Positions 1 to 5,545 of a stretch of DNA of 5,545 nucleotides are shown here, in pieces. Numbering within the stretch: position 1 is the stretch's first letter; the number at the start of each line of letters is the position of its first letter. A model generated the notes under the pieces. The model saw nothing but the letters and a program-made list of their open reading frames with translations. It had not been told where the DNA came from and ran no database searches. This stretch comes from Candidatus Iainarchaeum sp. (GTDB taxonomy: Archaea; Iainarchaeota; Iainarchaeia; Iainarchaeales; 0-14-0-20-30-16): assembly GCA_903916665.1 (NCBI GenBank), contig CAIWXP010000156.1, positions 1-5,545 of the forward strand, written 5' to 3'. The translations under genes and the position numbers were made by a program.

Positions 1-25
1 GTGTATTTATGACCAATTATAATTA

Positions 26-44
26 TTTTATTAAAAATTATAAT
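26..44 (+). promoter_or_regulatory. Possible promoter / TATA-like A+T run upstream of the KaiC-like gene
   Basis: TTTTATTAAAAATTATAAT lies 30-48 nt upstream of the ATG at 74 and contains a TATAAT hexamer at 39-44. No clear Shine-Dalgarno precedes the ATG, so a short or absent leader is possible. The leader is nearly pure A/T, so the call is weak. Confidence 0.2.
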
Positions 45-73
45 AGATTCTTAAAAATGAAAATGGTATTTTT

Positions 74-775
74 ATGGTAGATAAATTAGTTAGAATCCCT
101 TCTGGTATCCAAGGATTAGACGAATTAATCGAAGGCGGCTTTGAAAAAGGATCTACAATATTAACTTTAGGAACGCCAGGAGCAGGAAAAACTACCTTTG
201 CTCTACAGTATTTATACTACGGGGCAATAAAATATAAAGAACCAGGAATATTTATTACCTTTGATGAATCTAAAGAAGCTCTATTAAAACATCATTTGGA
301 GTATGGTTGGGATTTTGAAGATTTAGAAAAGAAAGGACTATTTTTAGTTTTAGAATATAGGCCACACCAAGTAAATAAATTATTAGAAGAGGGTGGAGGC
401 ATAATTAAAGATGCAATTAAATCTTTAGGTGCCAAAAGATTAGTTATTGATTCAGTAACAGGCTATTCTTTATTATTTAAAGACGAATATCAAAAAAGAG
501 AGAGTATTGTTGATTTATTTGAGCTATTAAAAAAGTGGGGCACAACCACATTAATTACTTCGGAAGATAGTTCTGCAAATAATACTGTTGTTGCTGGTGG
601 AGTAGATTATTTAGCAGATTCCATAATTCAATTAAGATATGAAGCAAATGGCAAAAATATAAATAAACAACACGTAATGGAAATAATGAAGATGCGTGGA
701 ACAAAACATACAAATAAGATTTGTCCTTTTTCGTTTGATGCTCACGGTTTGAGAATCTTCTCAGATTTAATTTAA
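74..775 (+). CDS. Single-domain KaiC-like / RecA-superfamily P-loop ATPase (COG0467-type)
   Basis: 233-aa ORF bounded upstream by an in-frame TAG at 44-46, with its first ATG at 74. By-eye similarity to the KaiC CI domain runs end to end: IPSGIQGLDELIEGG; Walker A GTPGAGKTT; EPGIFITFDES (KaiC EPGVFVTFEET); YGWDFEDLEKKGLFLVLE (KaiC FGWDLAKLVDEGKLFILD); Walker B RLVIDSVT; and MEIMKMRGTKHTNKICPFSFDAHGLRIF (KaiC LEILKLRGTSHMKGEYPFTITDHGINIF). One RecA-like domain only, as is typical of archaeal KaiC homologues. Confidence 0.9.
   Translation: MVDKLVRIPSGIQGLDELIEGGFEKGSTILTLGTPGAGKTTFALQYLYYGAIKYKEPGIFITFDESKEALLKHHLEYGWDFEDLEKKGLFLVLEYRPHQVNKLLEEGGGIIKDAIKSLGAKRLVIDSVTGYSLLFKDEYQKRESIVDLFELLKKWGTTTLITSEDSSANNTVVAGGVDYLADSIIQLRYEANGKNINKQHVMEIMKMRGTKHTNKICPFSFDAHGLRIFSDLI
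170..196 (+). other. Walker A / P-loop (GTPGAGKTT, aa 33-41) of the KaiC-like ATPase
   Basis: Codons gga acg cca gga gca gga aaa act acc encode the GxxGxGKT/S motif. Confidence 0.9.
437..454 (+). other. Walker B-like strand (RLVIDS, aa 122-127; Asp126)
   Basis: A hydrophobic strand ending in Asp, at the position equivalent to KaiC RVSIDS. The catalytic-carboxylate pair TFDE sits at nt 257-268. Confidence 0.75.
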
Positions 776-780
776 TGGGC

Positions 781-790
781 CTTTTTATTT
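781..790 (+). terminator. Possible oligo-T termination signal after the KaiC-like gene
   Basis: CTTTTTATTT begins 6 nt after the TAA stop (773-775). No G+C-rich stem precedes it, so it would be an archaeal-style T-tract terminator rather than a bacterial intrinsic hairpin. Read-through into gene 2 cannot be excluded. Confidence 0.3.
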
Positions 791-803
791 AATTAAAAAC
801 GAA

Positions 804-818
804 ATATATATATATATA
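804..818 (+). promoter_or_regulatory. (AT)7 dinucleotide tract / TATA-box-like element upstream of the giant ORF
   Basis: ATATATATATATATA lies 31-45 nt upstream of the ATG at 849. An archaeal TATA box here would put the transcription start around 835-842, just at or before the GGTGA ribosome-binding site. The near-palindrome AAATAGCCTATTT (818-830) follows. Confidence 0.35.
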
Positions 819-839
819 AATAGCCTATTTTTACAATCC

Positions 840-844
840 GGTGA
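840..844 (+). promoter_or_regulatory. Shine-Dalgarno-like ribosome-binding site (GGTGA)
   Basis: GGTGA is complementary to the conserved ..UCACC.. near the 16S rRNA 3' end, with a 4-nt spacer (ATTT) to the ATG at 849. It is the only G-rich pentamer in the spacer. Confidence 0.55.
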
Positions 845-848
845 ATTT

Positions 849-932
849 ATGTTTTTTAAAAAATTAATTGCTTTTTTATTTTTACTATGTTTTTTAATTA
901 CAACAGTTAACCAATTGAGCTCAATCTATGCG
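849..932 (+). other. Sec-type (type I) signal peptide, predicted cleavage after IYA (aa 28)
   Basis: MFFKK (positive n-region), LIAFLFLLCFLITTV (hydrophobic h-region), NQLSSIYA|QD (polar c-region with small residues at -1 and an A-x-A-like site). Confidence 0.75.
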
Positions 933-3900
933 CAGGATATTCCTGTAACAGTATATGTTGGTACAGAAGGTCCAACGATTGTTTCAGAACAAATATGTTA
1001 TTTGGGAACCTGTGCAAATTATCAAACAATAGATCCAGGTTCACAATTTACTTTAAAAATTCATTTAACAGATATTAATGGTTATTCGGATTTAAATTTT
1101 AATTCTGCAGTTTTACAATTATATTTAAGTACTGATACAAATAATGAAAATGTATTAAATTGGGATCATATAGTTTTAAAACCTAGTAATGATACATTGC
1201 ATTTTAATAATAGGGATGGTTGTATTCAAACAACAGATTATTATTGTTTTAATTTTGATTCAAATTATTGGACAGTTAAATTTGATAAAGGTGCAACAAA
1301 ATTATTTTTTAAAATATTAGATAATGAAGGTAATGAAACAGTTAGTGAATTATCCTACAATGAATTTTCGAGTGGAATTTATGTGAATCAATTTGTTAAT
1401 TTACATGTTGATGCATCAAGCATAACCTATTCTGGGAATCCAGGAAGTACTGTTCCAGCAAATACAAATTTAGATAAAAATTATTTATATTTAACAAATA
1501 CAGGAAATGTGGATTTAAATTTTACTGCTGCACAGAGCGATTTAAATTCAGGAACAAATACAATTTTGGCAAGCAATGTTTTTATAAGAAGTAATAGCAA
1601 TGATAATTCTGTGCATAGTGGAAATTATGCATTATTATTAGCAGGTAATAATGGTCTTCTTGATAATACAATTGTTCAACCAATAAACGGATTAACTTTT
1701 GGAAATTTATATAATTTTAGTTTTTATGCAAAATCCAATGATGATGCAAAATTAGATTATTTATATATTAATGGTTTTACTGAAAACCCTAAATTATGGG
1801 ATTTTAATAGTCATAGTTGGACAGATATGGAACCCGCATTAAAAATATACTATGAATCAGATTTTAATTCCTGGGTTGGAAATATTCCCGATGGTTGGGA
1901 AGAATCAAGTACGGATGGAAGTCCTATATTTCAATCCATATCAGATCCTTTAAAATATCACAACGCTCCCTTTTCTTTAAAAATAACAAGTGGTGAGCCA
2001 GGCCAGGGAGGAATTATAAGAAGATATATTTCAAATATGTCAACAGATACTAATTATACTTTATCCTATTGGGCAAGAGGTGAAAATGGAGGCGAATCAA
2101 CAACATTATATTTATTAAATTCTGATAATAATGAAATATGGTTTTTTACTGGTGATGATGCAAATAGTTGGCAATCCTATTTAGGAGGTATACCTCCTAG
2201 TGGTGCACTATTAACAACATCATTATCAACTAATTTCCAACAAATAACTACAACTTTTATTTCTCCTTCAACTAGTGGGGGAAATGTGCAAGTAAATATA
2301 ATTGGCGAAGTGCAAAATGGTTTTGCGAGTGTTTATATTGATGATTTTGAATTGGCAGATATGGATAGATTTCCATCAGGTAATCAAATTAAAAGTTATA
2401 ATTTAAATGATAATTATAATCAATTTTCAGATGTAATTTCTGCACCAGAAAATGGAATAATAATTCCTTTAATTGCAAATGATAGAGCTGATACTAATAT
2501 GTATGTTGATAATGCATTTTTCGGAACTTTTATTCCAACAGCTTCTACCAATTTAATAGATAATTTTGGTTTAGAAAATTGGTCTCCAATATATATGCCA
2601 GATAATTGGATGAGTATGATTGGAGCACCCTACGATCCAACAAGAACAACAGAATCTTTTGACGGCAACTATGCATTAAAAACAAATGGTAGTAATACAA
2701 ATTTAATAATGTCATCATCAATATTTGCAAATGAAGTTTCGGGGTTAAAAGAAGATGATAATTATATTGGAAGTTTGTACGCAAAAACAAGTTCTAATGG
2801 GAATGTTGTTGTTGCATATTTGGATGGTAATGATATTTGGAATTTTGATACTCATAGTTGGGTTAGACAAGTAAATGGAGAGCCACCATCATCAGAAATT
2901 TATACGATTACTGGTTTGAGTTCTAGCTATGGTCAAAAAATTATTCCCTATGTTACTGTTGCACCAGTTGGACAGATTATGATGATTGTGGGTTCAAACA
3001 ATGATAATGTTTATATTGATAATGTAAATTTACAAAAAGATGGTTCTGGAGATAATATTTTATCCAATGGTAATTTTGAAAATTGGTCTTTAACTGGTAA
3101 TTCATTGGATGGTTTTAATATGTTGGCAAATAATGGAAATGAAATTGCCCAGGAGACAAATCCTAATAATGTTCATTCAGGGTCTAGTGCAGTTAGAATG
3201 TACGGTCCCAATGATGGTCCTGATATTTTAACCTATACAAAAACAGGACTAACTCCTGGTGCAGAATATAATTTTAGCTATTGGGCAAAAACAGATACAA
3301 ATGTAAACCTGGGTGTTGTTTTTGTTAATGGTCAATTTAATAGTGATGATTTAAATATTTTTAATAAAACAACTAGACAATGGGAACATTTTAATTCTAA
3401 TGATGGTCCTGGTGTGGGGATGGACTCTTCATTGTTAGATGATAATTATAAAAATTATATTGTTAATTTTAATGTTATTGTTCCTCCAACAGGAATATTA
3501 ACTGTTGCAATTTTTGGAAGTAGAGATGGAAATATTTATTTGGATGATTTAAGTTTATATTCTAGTAATCCCTCTGGTAATCTAGGATCAAATATTTTAC
3601 AAAATGCAGATTTTGAAGATTGGAATTCAAATGTTCCTTTGAATTGGGTTATGAGTAATAGTGATAGTGATAGTTCAAGTTCTAATACTATTCAACAAAC
3701 CTCTCCTGGAAATGATAGTAATAGTGCAATTAAATTAATTTCATCTGGGCAAGATAATCCAGCCTATATTTCTCAAGATGTAACTGGATTAACTCCAGAT
3801 AGTAATTATATAACTAATTTTTATGGAAGAACTGATTCAAATAATTCAATAGCAGTAGTATATATGGCATTTAATGGTAATCATCAATATTATTGGGATT

Positions 3901-5537
3901 TTACAGGTACAAATGCAAATAATTGGTCTGAGGTAATAACAAACTATTTACAAAATGGAGATTTTGAAAATTATAATGATGGTAATTTTGATAATTGGAC
4001 ATTGATTAATAATGGGCCAGATAATAATGGTCAAGCATTATTTGGTGACAGATATACTAGTCCAAATCATTCTGCAGAATTGATTTCAACATCTGATTCT
4101 GGTGTTGGATTGATGAGTGATCCGGTTTCAATAAATCACGATGTTAACATGCATTACTATTGTAATTTTGTTGATATGGGTATGGGTTCAGCAGCTTGGA
4201 TAATTTTAGTTAATCAAGACATGAATATGATTTATAATGTTCAAAATAGTTCTTGGCAACCAATTGATATGCAAACACAACATCCTGATGAAAATACATC
4301 ATTATACTTTACTATTCCTAATAATGGTGGACAGTTTTCAATGTTATCAAATTATTTTTCCATCCCTATTGATCAAAATATTAAAATGCTGGTAGGAACA
4401 AATGGTCATTCTACTATTCATGTTGATGATTGTACAATAATGGATGTTGCAAATGAAAATAATAGGGGTCCAACAAATGATCAATTTCATTTTATAAATT
4501 TGAATAATAATTATCAAAATTATTCTTCTCCTGCTGTGACTGTTCCACCAAGCGGAAATCTAAGTTTAACATTAGCAAGTTTTTCTCCTGATATTTATTT
4601 AGATGATATTAACATGTCATTAAATGGCGAAGGAAATAATATTTTACAAAATGCAGGATTTGAGGATTGGAATGGTTCAAATCCAGTTGCTTGGAATACC
4701 TCTGATAATCAAAGTAATGGTGGAAACGATGGTGTAAATAATAGCACAAATTATTTATTAAATGGAAATTTTAATGATTATAGTTTTGATACAAATAGTT
4801 TTAATCATTGGGATTCAAAAACAGATTTTATGGGTTCAGGAACAGGAGCTAACTTTACAATGGAGCCAGATGGAAATGGAAGTCCAGGGCATGTGAGATT
4901 AAATTCATTTCCTGATAGTGGAATAACAATGGGCAGTGATCCTGTATATGATTTAGGTCCTCAACTACAATGGAATTATAGTTGTGATTCTTGGGCAAAT
5001 GGTGAAGAAAGGGTATCGGGTAGTTTCATGGCCATAGTTGCAAATGATGGAAATAAGATCTATGATTTTCAAGCACACACCTGGGATGATTGGAATCATG
5101 AACAAGGGTTTTATGGGAATGCGCGATATGAATTTATTAGTAGTGGAATACAAAGTGATCAATCAAGTTTTTCAATGGATTTTAATATAGGTAATAACAT
5201 AAATGGATTAATATTTATAGTTGGGTTGCAGCCTGATAATAGTACATATAAAAGTGTGTATTTTGATAACTGTTCAGTAACAGAATTAAATCAAAATAAT
5301 AACAATAATAATAACAACAATAATAATTCCAATGACTATAATTATTTGTTCAAGATAGAAAGTTCAAATGGAATTCATTTTATTGATCATGGGGGAGAAT
5401 TGATAGGCCCAACAATAGCTAAAGGAATTTATCCTAATTTTGGTGATTTAACCCTACCTTTAGGAATATTTATCCCTCAAAACACTCCCAATGGTACCTA
5501 TTTAGGTTATTTGTCAATAAACGCAGCTCCTGCATAA
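849..5537 (+). CDS. Giant secreted Asn-rich surface/adhesin-like protein with eight CBM4_9-like (galactose-binding-like jelly-roll) modules
   Basis: A 4.7-kb uninterrupted ORF in A+T-rich DNA, where stop codons are frequent by chance. It has an SD-like site upstream, an N-terminal signal peptide and strong internal protein-level periodicity with conserved motifs. The stop is TAA at 5535-5537. The domain-family assignment comes from remembered motif patterns, not from a search. Confidence 0.85.
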   Translation: MFFKKLIAFLFLLCFLITTVNQLSSIYAQDIPVTVYVGTEGPTIVSEQICYLGTCANYQTIDPGSQFTLKIHLTDINGYSDLNFNSAVLQLYLSTDTNNENVLNWDHIVLKPSNDTLHFNNRDGCIQTTDYYCFNFDSNYWTVKFDKGATKLFFKILDNEGNETVSELSYNEFSSGIYVNQFVNLHVDASSITYSGNPGSTVPANTNLDKNYLYLTNTGNVDLNFTAAQSDLNSGTNTILASNVFIRSNSNDNSVHSGNYALLLAGNNGLLDNTIVQPINGLTFGNLYNFSFYAKSNDDAKLDYLYINGFTENPKLWDFNSHSWTDMEPALKIYYESDFNSWVGNIPDGWEESSTDGSPIFQSISDPLKYHNAPFSLKITSGEPGQGGIIRRYISNMSTDTNYTLSYWARGENGGESTTLYLLNSDNNEIWFFTGDDANSWQSYLGGIPPSGALLTTSLSTNFQQITTTFISPSTSGGNVQVNIIGEVQNGFASVYIDDFELADMDRFPSGNQIKSYNLNDNYNQFSDVISAPENGIIIPLIANDRADTNMYVDNAFFGTFIPTASTNLIDNFGLENWSPIYMPDNWMSMIGAPYDPTRTTESFDGNYALKTNGSNTNLIMSSSIFANEVSGLKEDDNYIGSLYAKTSSNGNVVVAYLDGNDIWNFDTHSWVRQVNGEPPSSEIYTITGLSSSYGQKIIPYVTVAPVGQIMMIVGSNNDNVYIDNVNLQKDGSGDNILSNGNFENWSLTGNSLDGFNMLANNGNEIAQETNPNNVHSGSSAVRMYGPNDGPDILTYTKTGLTPGAEYNFSYWAKTDTNVNLGVVFVNGQFNSDDLNIFNKTTRQWEHFNSNDGPGVGMDSSLLDDNYKNYIVNFNVIVPPTGILTVAIFGSRDGNIYLDDLSLYSSNPSGNLGSNILQNADFEDWNSNVPLNWVMSNSDSDSSSSNTIQQTSPGNDSNSAIKLISSGQDNPAYISQDVTGLTPDSNYITNFYGRTDSNNSIAVVYMAFNGNHQYYWDFTGTNANNWSEVITNYLQNGDFENYNDGNFDNWTLINNGPDNNGQALFGDRYTSPNHSAELISTSDSGVGLMSDPVSINHDVNMHYYCNFVDMGMGSAAWIILVNQDMNMIYNVQNSSWQPIDMQTQHPDENTSLYFTIPNNGGQFSMLSNYFSIPIDQNIKMLVGTNGHSTIHVDDCTIMDVANENNRGPTNDQFHFINLNNNYQNYSSPAVTVPPSGNLSLTLASFSPDIYLDDINMSLNGEGNNILQNAGFEDWNGSNPVAWNTSDNQSNGGNDGVNNSTNYLLNGNFNDYSFDTNSFNHWDSKTDFMGSGTGANFTMEPDGNGSPGHVRLNSFPDSGITMGSDPVYDLGPQLQWNYSCDSWANGEERVSGSFMAIVANDGNKIYDFQAHTWDDWNHEQGFYGNARYEFISSGIQSDQSSFSMDFNIGNNINGLIFIVGLQPDNSTYKSVYFDNCSVTELNQNNNNNNNNNNNSNDYNYLFKIESSNGIHFIDHGGELIGPTIAKGIYPNFGDLTLPLGIFIPQNTPNGTYLGYLSINAAPA
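933..1364 (+). other. N-terminal beta-sandwich-like domain with two closely spaced Cys pairs
   Basis: aa 29-172. It shows alternating hydrophobic strand patterns (PVTVYVG, QFTLKIHLTD, AVLQLYL, HIVLKP, YWTVKFD, KLFFKILDNEGNETV), with Cys50/Cys55 (C-x4-C) and Cys125/Cys133 (C-x7-C). The fold class is inferred from the pattern only. Confidence 0.4.
1377..1607 (+). other. NTGN-motif strand region (possible N-terminal half of an Ig-like sandwich)
   Basis: aa 177-253: VNLHVDASSITYSG..NYLYLTNTGNVDLNFTAAQSDLNSGTNTILASNVFI. The x-N-T-G-N-x-D-L pattern followed by L-x-S-G-x-N-x-I is common in prokaryotic Ig-like surface domains. The expected closing P-x-G-x-Y-x-G strand appears only at the extreme C-terminus. 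Confidence 0.35.
1560..1841 (+). repeat. Module A, N-terminal half only (aa 238-331)
   Basis: It has the first five family motifs: a degenerate TILASNVF, then VHSGNYALLLAG, INGLTFGNLYNFSFYAKS, LDYLYING and LWDFNSHSW. It lacks the closing ..Y-x-D-D/N strand. Confidence 0.6.
1842..2360 (+). repeat. Module B, complete (aa 332-504), lying inside module A
   Basis: KIYYESDFNSWVGNIPDGW, FSLKITSG, TNYTLSYWARG, TTLYLLN, IWFFTGDDANSW, loop GGIPPSG, NFQQITTTFISPSTSG, VQVNIIG..SVYIDDFEL. Confidence 0.65.
2361..2525 (+). repeat. Module A, C-terminal half only (aa 505-559)
   Basis: It has only the last two family motifs: YNLNDNYNQFSDVISAPENG and IIIPLIAN..NMYVDNAFF. There is no N-I-L-x-N-x-x-F-E-x-W start. 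Confidence 0.6.
2550..3038 (+). repeat. Module C, complete and uninterrupted (aa 568-730)
   Basis: NLIDNFGLENWSPIYMPDNW, FDGNYALKTNG, VSGLKEDDNYIGSLYAKT, NVVVAYLDG, IWNFDTHSW, loop GEPPSSE, SSSYGQKIIPYVTVAPVG, IMMIVGSNNDNVYIDNVNL. Confidence 0.7.
3054..3560 (+). repeat. Module D, complete and uninterrupted (aa 736-904)
   Basis: NILSNGNFENWSLTGNSLDGF, VHSGSSAVRMYG, KTGLTPGAEYNFSYWAKT, LGVVFVNG, IFNKTTRQW, loop NDGPGVGMDSS, DDNYKNYIVNFNVIVPPTG, LTVAIFGSRDGNIYLDDLSL. Confidence 0.7.
3591..3941 (+). repeat. Module E, N-terminal half only (aa 915-1031)
   Basis: NILQNADFEDWNSNVPLNW, NSAIKLISSG, VTGLTPDSNYITNFYGRT, IAVVYMAFNG, YWDFTGTNANNW. It then runs directly (SEVIT|NYLQNG) into the start of the next module with no closing strand. 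Confidence 0.65.
3942..4445 (+). repeat. Module F, complete (aa 1032-1199), lying inside module E; Cys-containing subtype
   Basis: NYLQNGDFENYNDGNFDNW, NHSAELISTS, VNMHYYCNF, AAWIILVN, IYNVQNSSW, GGQFSMLSNYFSIPIDQN, IKMLVGTNGHSTIHVDDCTI. Cys1105 and Cys1195. Confidence 0.65.
4446..4622 (+). repeat. Module E, C-terminal half only (aa 1200-1258)
   Basis: FINLNNNYQNYSSPAVTVPPSG and NLSLTLASFSPDIYLDDINMSL, i.e. the last two family motifs only. Confidence 0.65.
4638..4748 (+). repeat. Module G-prime: orphan first strands of a module (aa 1264-1300)
   Basis: NILQNAGFEDWNGSNPVAW, then a short N/S/G-rich stretch, then the next module start. The DNA at 4638-4673 matches 3591-3626 (start of module E) at 33 of 36 positions by hand alignment. 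Confidence 0.55.
4749..5285 (+). repeat. Module H, complete (aa 1301-1479); Cys-containing subtype like F
   Basis: NYLLNGNFNDYSFDTNSFNHW, PGHVRLNSFP, LQWNYSCDSWANG, SGSFMAIVAN, IYDFQAHTW, SSFSMDFNIGNNING, LIFIVGLQPDNSTYKSVYFDNCSV. Cys1379 and Cys1475 sit at positions equivalent to the Cys pair of F. Confidence 0.65.
5295..5327 (+). repeat. Poly-Asn tract (11 consecutive Asn; imperfect AAT/AAC trinucleotide repeat)
   Basis: aat aat aac aat aat aat aac aac aat aat aat, lying between module H and the C-terminal tail. Confidence 0.95.
5328..5534 (+). other. C-terminal 69-aa tail with a P-N-G-T-Y-x-G closing-strand motif; no anchor
   Basis: SNDYNYLFKIESSNGIHFIDHGGELIGPTIAKGIYPNFGDLTLPLGIFIPQNTPNGTYLGYLSINAAPA. 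It has alternating-hydrophobic strands but no hydrophobic TM helix, and no LPXTG, PGF-CTERM or PEP-CTERM-like ending. Confidence 0.5.
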
Positions 5538-5545
5538 TATATTTA

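Follow-up and report, generated by a model that had tools for sequence, protein, structure and literature searches.

How a protein module comes to lie inside another module of the same kind is the question raised by a 5545-nucleotide (nt) stretch of DNA from Candidatus Iainarchaeum sp. (contig CAIWXP010000156.1, positions 1 to 5,545 of the forward strand; hereafter the window). The window has a GC content of ~29% and holds two genes, both on the + strand, the second of which is one uninterrupted open reading frame (ORF) of 1562 amino acids (aa) at 849-5537. Its product was predicted from the sequence to be a giant, secreted, multi-module protein, with a hydrophobic, signal-peptide-like N-terminus, and its modules were labelled A to H. 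An earlier reading of the same DNA (the original prediction) had proposed that module E is interrupted by a complete module F, just as module A is interrupted by module B; such pairs are called nests here and are written E(F) and A(B), and the two parts of an outer module are denoted by N and C (E-N and E-C). The present analysis describes E as a discontinuous β-jelly-roll of the carbohydrate-binding module (CBM) type that carries F, the pair as an old heritable nest, and the protein as a putative glycan-binding adhesin. Taken as a whole, this reading was considered likely.

The E(F) region extended over window positions 3591-4622 (aa 915-1258), and its segments followed each other in the order E-N (aa 915-1031), F (aa 1032-1199) and E-C (aa 1200-1262). 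Module E started with NILQNADFEDWNSNVPLNW at aa 915 (nt 3591) and ran up to YWDFTGTNANNW (aa 1015-1026), after which the residues SEVIT (aa 1027-1031) led into F. The inner module began with NYLQNGDFENY at aa 1032 and ended with IHVDDCTIMD at aa 1199, and NNNYQNYSSPAVTVPPSG...PDIYLDDINMSL then spanned aa 1219-1258 (up to nt 4622). All of these strings lay where the original prediction had placed them. A seed hidden Markov model (HMM) was trained on the unsplit modules C, D, F and H and was searched against the whole protein. E-N (aa 915-1019) was matched to seed positions 1-94 with an independent E-value (iE) of 8e-11, and E-C (aa 1217-1256) was matched to positions 115-154; the match of F (aa 1032-1199) to positions 1-156 was given by construction, F being among the four training sequences. 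In the first nest, A-N (aa 238-326), B (aa 337-503) and A-C (aa 512-555) were matched to positions 17-100, 6-155 and 109-151, respectively. Circularity was avoided by profiles that were built solely from five foreign (metagenomic) proteins. The outN profile matched E-N (aa 911-1029) with an iE of 1.9e-14, and the outC profile matched E-C (aa 1207-1264) with an iE of 8.5e-13 over profile positions 4-63 of 63. Judged from these profile coordinates, the complementary pattern of E-N and E-C around a complete F is far beyond chance.

Distant relatives of the nest were recovered via an exhaustive phmmer search of E(F) against 1.84 billion representatives, in which 15 proteins were found at E <= 0.001, with values down to 1e-15. 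P0002, P0003, P0005 and P0015 aligned in one stretch covering query residues 47-358, that is, the nest minus the first ~45-70 residues of E-N, and P0001 also carried the nest. The MAFFT alignment of seven nests was colinear throughout. The split of A(B) and that of E(F) lay in the same register, with the invariant Trp followed by five residues and then by the inner module, and the earlier claim that E is broken in the same loop as A was thus borne out at the level of single residues. This junction register was shared by nine nests, namely A(B), E(F) and seven from the five metagenomic proteins; the inner module started 5-8 residues past the invariant Trp, and the outer chain resumed ~6-10 residues beyond the Y-x-D-D strand of the inner module, in most cases at a P-(T/S)-x-(D/N) motif.

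One origin or several origins of the nests were compared via outer and inner profiles that were trained solely on the foreign nests and scored against the modules of the window. The outer profile was preferred by A (56 bits versus 34 bits for the inner profile, a difference of +22.5), E (85 versus 42 bits, +43.2) and C (104 versus 62 bits, +42.8), and the inner profile was preferred by B (outer 33 versus inner 66 bits, -33.2), F (6.0 versus 42.2 bits, -36.2) and H (7 versus 19 bits, -12.1). Module D was neutral (63 versus 59 bits, +4.1). Foreign outer modules from outside the training set were also of the outer type (P0002-1, +104; P0003-1, +79). According to these scores, outer and inner are two conserved module subtypes, to which A and E (outer) and B, F and H (inner) are assigned. 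Given two subtypes and a fixed junction register, an ancient nest that has been copied as a unit is the most economical explanation; inheritance of the nest as an old unit was therefore regarded as quite probable from the sequence comparisons.

The original prediction had preferred another course, with separate origins of A(B) and E(F): in each case a complete module would have landed in the same permissive loop, but in a different host module. Within the window, neither B and F nor A and E are closest relatives, which speaks for separate insertion, and the loop is permissive in the family as a whole. One module of P0002 (aa 813-913 + 1008-1082) carried an unrelated insert of ~95 aa in the same loop, and P0007 (aa 824-1183), annotated as a peptidoglycan-binding protein in a Bacteroidales metagenome-assembled genome (MAG), contained a nest that was split at a different, earlier loop (~profile position 86) and was made of modules of neither subtype. 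Hence, insertion into these jelly rolls was not limited to one site or one cargo, and the predicted structural permissiveness of the loop gained support across the family. However, separate insertions would have required that host type, insert type and site were identical on every occasion. Moreover, the foreign-only profiles separated the subtype of A and E from that of B, F and H, the residue register was the same in 9 nests, and the whole nest was colinear with the foreign proteins at E-values down to 1e-15. Independent insertion was considered unlikely on these grounds, and the alternative that the original prediction had itself mentioned, that the nests are very old, was favoured by the same evidence.

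Nesting may also go deeper in some proteins. In P0002 (aa 124-813) and P0003 (aa 105-799), the profiles were read in the order outer-N, outer-N, inner, outer-C, inner-type and outer-C. This order suggests that one nest contains another, with a sister module in the same loop, to a depth of three, which would be written N1[N2[M3]C2 M4]C1.

The closest relative of F in the window was found to be H rather than B, as had been predicted. The two modules were the mutual best match (32% identity, z of 10.6, neighbour-joining (NJ) bootstrap of 77%), and neither A and E nor B and F paired. The Y-for-W start that F and H had been said to share (ENY and NDY, respectively) was real, and so was their positionally equivalent Cys pair. 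The cysteines lay at equivalent alignment columns, namely C1105 (4161-4163) and C1195 (4431-4433) in F and C1379 (4983-4985) and C1475 (5271-5273) in H, with one Cys of each pair in the Y-x-C strand and the other in the final D-D/N-C strand. Foreign inner modules had Cys elsewhere or none. The two pairs may be disulphides specific to an F/H sub-lineage.

The segment directly before H provides a further link between F and H. This stump, G (aa 1263-1298), began with NILQNAGFEDWNGSNPVAWN... and matched only the first ~30 profile positions, which cover the opening strand(s) of a module of the outer type. The beginning of the stump was nearly identical to that of E (NILQNAGFEDWN versus NILQNADFEDWN), with 86% nt identity over 43 nt (versus 3584-3626) for E and 70% for D, and with protein scores of 95 and 62 against E and D, respectively. 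Since H is preceded by a stump whose start most resembles the start of E, G(H) looks like a decayed E(F)-like nest. The chances that G(H) is a copy of such a nest, with most of the outer module lost, were put at about even; a decayed G(H) would offer a simpler explanation of the F/H pairing. The tail at aa 1480-1562 was considered as the missing C-half of G and was rejected, with no similarity by HMM or hhalign.

Whether the two segments of E fold together was evaluated via an AlphaFold2 prediction of the nest, as the original prediction had proposed, and a prediction of E with F excised. The E(F) model covered aa 905-1262 and was based on alignment A2 of 7 nest sequences. The halves of E were its most confident part, with blocks of the predicted local distance difference test (pLDDT) score at 69-90 for E-N and 73-91 for E-C, and F was weaker (49-75). 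The modelled strands numbered 8+4 for E and 9+4 for F. For spliced E, aa 910-1031 were joined to aa 1200-1262 and a 32-sequence module alignment was used. Spliced E was predicted at a pLDDT of 90.9 and a predicted TM-score (pTM) of 0.88, and confidence dipped only in the splice loop (66, residues 121-130). Foldseek aligned spliced E with single CBM4, CBM16, CBM22 and CBM61 structures over the full query length (186-200 columns), at TM-scores normalised by the target (TMt) of 0.66-0.73; the matches were CBM4 (1gui, 4bj0), CBM16 (2zex, 3oea), CBM22 (4xup) and CBM61 (2xom). The predicted fold of spliced E is thus a β-jelly-roll of the CBM4/9/16/22 type. The E(F) model also matched CBM4 and CBM22 structures. 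When PDB and BFVD were searched with the E(F) model, matches were at the level of single domains only, with TM-scores normalised by query length (TMq) of <=0.36, and the same two-domain arrangement was not found in either collection, a result to which the inter-domain geometry is too unreliable to give meaning.

Because spliced E matched whole jelly rolls over its full length, aa 915-1031 and aa 1200-1258 can be read as two parts of one CBM-type jelly roll. In the models, the insertion point is the loop between the 8th and 9th strands of E. A different account would deny a true nest: the tandem array would be degenerating, E-N would be what is left of a decayed and truncated module, and aa 1200-1262 would form a small domain or a linker of their own. 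In its favour, a truncated module is indeed seen in the giant protein, namely stump G, and E-C was weak against the seed HMM alone (3.8 bits). However, E-C fitted exactly the positions missing from E-N and matched the foreign outer C-halves strongly, it was the most confident part of the E(F) model by pLDDT, spliced E was predicted as one confident jelly roll, and the arrangement was conserved in distant proteins; this account was held to be very improbable. An assembly chimera or pseudogene from a mis-assembled repetitive gene, which would fit an internally repetitive gene in low-GC, metagenome-like sequence with no record elsewhere, was given hardly any weight, since the ORF is uninterrupted over 4.7 kb, the inter-module DNA repeats (<=43 nt, diverged) are too weak to mislead an assembler, and the same topology occurs twice in the giant protein and again in independent samples. 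E(F) therefore combined complementary profile coordinates, two significant halves and spliced halves that form one predicted domain, and the nested topology of E-N, F and E-C is very probable. The central claim of the original prediction, that E is one module interrupted by a complete F, was in this way upheld by the profile coordinates, the foreign-only profiles and the spliced model.

Several observations weigh against the reading of an old, heritable nest in a glycan-binding adhesin. The E(F) model was of moderate quality (pLDDT of 66.6 and pTM of 0.51, from a 7-sequence alignment), and the contacts between E-N and E-C within it were deduced from its pLDDT together with the spliced model. 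Spliced E, E-N, E-C, F and H, each searched singly against Pfam CBM_4_9, gave no match at E<1. The deep nodes of the NJ module tree had bootstrap values of <20%, and the tree was used for the F/H pair alone. The module comparison envisaged by the original prediction thus yielded the F/H pair and the lack of A/E and B/F pairs, and the deeper branching was not recovered. Since the deep nodes had no bootstrap support, the argument for a single origin is carried by the profile scores and the conservation of the junction. No close orthologue of the giant protein was found in any collection searched. Sugar binding is presumed by analogy with the CBM families, and no sugar-binding residues were identified. 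Furthermore, the viral assignment of the homologues (see below) draws on weak annotation.

The searches for relatives depended strongly on the method. A word-indexed protein search gave no match for the whole protein, for E(F) or for alignment A2. The A2 search was empty even though A2 includes segments of P0001, P0002, P0003, P0005 and P0015, proteins that represent clusters of that very collection; modules that are low in complexity, rich in Asn and highly diverged seem to be missed by the word index. For a pattern scan, A2 was too diverged. Scans for close relatives returned one weak 85-aa match in metagenomes and none in IMG/VR, and tblastn against 50,697 phage records gave no match for E(F) or P0003. 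A MAFFT alignment of E(F), A(B) and the unsplit modules placed B on E-N and was discarded.

The genomic context of two homologues was examined. P0003 was encoded at L032 6759-11048, and the contigs of P0003 and P0008 were gene-dense, co-directional and nearly without Pfam matches. One SU10_adaptor match and one head-decoration PHROG match were found among the neighbouring genes. P0003 and P0008 themselves had no match in PHROGs, in a scan that covered these homologues and not the window protein. The jelly-roll fold is common in phage tail proteins. The two contigs are probably viral, and this was concluded with moderate confidence.

In the proposed arrangement, E would be a discontinuous CBM4/9/22-type β-jelly-roll in which the surface loop between the 8th and 9th strands holds a complete module F of the same fold. 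The chain would pass through 8 strands of E, 5 residues after the invariant Trp, then F, and then the last 4 strands of E. In modules of the CBM4/6/22 type, the first strand lies next to the last, so that such a module is able to serve as an insert. The first strand of F (N-x-L-x-N-G-x-F-E) and its last strand (x-V-D-D) are accordingly expected to lie side by side. The conserved F-E and D-D motifs resemble the structural Ca2+ site, which would tie both termini of each module; this site and the geometry of the termini are extrapolated from CBM4/6/22-type modules. A(B) and E(F) would be two copies of one building block, of which G(H) is probably a third, decayed copy, and the outer and inner positions of the block would be held by the two distinct subtypes that appear conserved in metagenomic proteins from probably viral contigs. 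The order of these evolutionary events is a reconstruction.

The protein would be secreted by an episymbiotic DPANN (Diapherotrites/Iainarchaeota-like) archaeon and would serve it as a glycan-binding adhesin. Its outer modules would work in the manner of the split domain of RTX adhesins (see below) and form a stalk, and the inner modules, presumably ligand-binding, would be held rigidly off the protein axis, and the array of binding sites would be branched and not beads-on-a-string. The adhesin function was argued by analogy and was regarded as an evenly balanced possibility.

The closest known counterparts of the single modules are those of CBM families 4/9/16/22/61 (PF02018), with which reconstructed E shares its fold as a whole-structure match. 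The window modules also share the N-terminal N-x-x-N-G-x-F-E and C-terminal Y-x-D-D motifs of the CBM_4_9 family. In contrast, E, F and H were singly below Pfam significance, and the giant protein has no catalytic partner domain. The whole protein scored 44.9 bits against Pfam CBM_4_9 (gathering cut-off of 25.9), and B was the only module that alone reached the cut-off (26.0 versus 25.9 bits); E and F were tied to the family only via the in-protein and metagenomic profiles. Described CBM4/9/22 modules are contiguous and in tandem (e.g. 4xup, CBM22-1-CBM22-2), whereas here one lies inside another. No description of a CBM4/9-type module nested in another was found in a partial literature search.

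Split domains that carry an insert are known from two other systems. In RTX (repeats-in-toxin) adhesins such as AhLap of Aeromonas hydrophila, split domains project ligand-binding CBMs (PMC12077191). As in the arrangement proposed for the window protein, a β-sandwich is interrupted by a complete ligand-binding domain (there a CBM) with adjacent termini and is completed afterwards (PMC12077191), and the split domain lies within a giant extracellular adhesin, which the window protein is predicted to be. However, the RTX split domain is of the Ig-like type and has no relation to the domain that it carries, whereas host and insert in the window are homologous CBM-type jelly rolls. The window protein is archaeal, has a predicted N-terminal signal peptide, and is without RTX repeats or a type I secretion signal; its split domain is a CBM-type jelly roll and its 68-aa C-terminus is unrelated, so it does not have the split-domain architecture of RTX adhesins. 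In siphophage baseplates, 'evolved' Dit and Tal proteins carry CBMs as loop insertions (PMC7533335). These CBMs likewise sit within a second structural domain, in a protein that recognises the receptor (PMC7533335), and the homologues of the window nest are on probably viral contigs. The phage hosts are galectin-like or gp27-like and their inserts have BppA-like or other folds, in which the window nest differs. The tblastn search described above revealed no sequence relationship of Dit or Tal to E(F) or P0003, and the giant protein does not qualify as an 'evolved' Dit or Tal protein. In the Pfam search of the giant protein, no RTX, no Dit or Tal and no other family beyond CBM_4_9 was found. 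Domain insertion with a split host domain is thus already known; what appears new here is that host and insert are homologous and are probably inherited as a unit.

The coordinates of the modules are given in Table 1.

Table 1. Modules of the giant protein, with positions in the window and in the protein.
Feature	Window position	Residues (aa)	Strand	Remarks
Outer module A, N-part	1536..1835	230-329	+	first nest
Inner module B	1836..2360	330-504	+	first nest; inner type
Outer module A, C-part	2361..2534	505-562	+	first nest
Module C, unsplit	2535..3047	563-733	+	outer type
Module D, unsplit	3048..3566	734-906	+	best Pfam CBM_4_9 stretch; neither clear type
Outer module E, N-part	3576..3941	910-1031	+	8 predicted β-strands; ends with invariant Trp1026 and SEVIT
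Inner module F	3942..4445	1032-1199	+	complete module in loop of E; 13 modelled strands; Cys1105/Cys1195
Outer module E, C-part	4446..4634	1200-1262	+	last 4 strands, including YLDD
Stump G	4635..4742	1263-1298	+	only first ~30 positions of outer-type module
Module H	4743..5288	1299-1480	+	inner type; closest relative F; equivalent Cys pair
Poly-Asn linker and 68-aa tail	5289..5534	linker 1482-1494	+	tail without detectable family

The regions that flank the modules were also inspected. The segment before the first nest (aa 30-229, window 936-1535) had no significant family, a TSGP1 match being sub-threshold (E of 0.05), and contained 4 of the 9 cysteines of the protein (C50, C55, C125 and C133). 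After the modules (aa 1481-1562, window 5289-5534), a run of 11 Asn was found within LNQNNNNNNNNNNNSND, followed by the 68-aa C-terminal tail (…GTYLGYLSINAAPA), which had no Pfam match, did not resemble the module profiles and showed no obvious membrane anchor. The stop codon of the giant ORF lies 8 nt before the end of the window. Two short minus-strand ORFs inside the giant ORF were unsupported, and no tRNA was found in the 5545-nt window. Neither window protein was on record in an exact look-up.

The first gene of the window (74-775, +) encodes a KaiC/RecA-type ATPase (Pfam KaiC, E of 3e-58), with 73% identity to a protein of a Candidatus Diapherotrites MAG (L001) and 54-60% identity to those of several Iainarchaeum MAGs, which places the source among the DPANN archaea. 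In the intergenic region at 776-848, an (AT)n/TATA-like stretch lay ~30 nt upstream and GGTGA lay 5 nt upstream of the ATG at 849; these elements are consistent with an archaeal promoter and a ribosome-binding site belonging to the giant gene itself. In the closest MAG (L001, Diapherotrites), the KaiC gene was shared, but the gene after it was not homologous to the giant protein. In this part of the MAG (L001 6718-9139), the KaiC-like gene was preceded by genes for a predicted multi-pass membrane protein and a small protein, whose hydrophobic N-terminus resembled that of archaeal type IV pilins. Given its absence beside KaiC in L001, the giant protein seems to be a variable element that was added beside a pilus- or archaellum-like locus.

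The finding adds no new class of mechanism, since the projection of binding domains by split domains is known from RTX adhesins and phage baseplates. Large adhesins have rarely been documented to be built by nesting modules of the same fold at a fixed site, in units that are inherited whole and are apparently iterated. Such nesting defeats standard domain annotation, with Pfam detecting 2 of the 8 modules in the giant protein, and the outer/inner unit provides a handle for annotating 'hypothetical' giant proteins of DPANN archaea and uncultured viruses. For protein engineering, the nest offers a natural permissive insertion loop in a CBM4/9 jelly roll. It is put forward tentatively that homotypic recursive nesting is a conserved heritable block shared by probably viral receptor-binding-like proteins and DPANN surface proteins. 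If this were true, rigid branched arrays of glycan-binding sites would be built, up to a depth of three in P0002 and P0003, and receptor-recognition modules would have been exchanged between viruses and episymbiotic archaea. Nests of this kind also mark candidate host-recognition proteins in an episymbiotic lineage.

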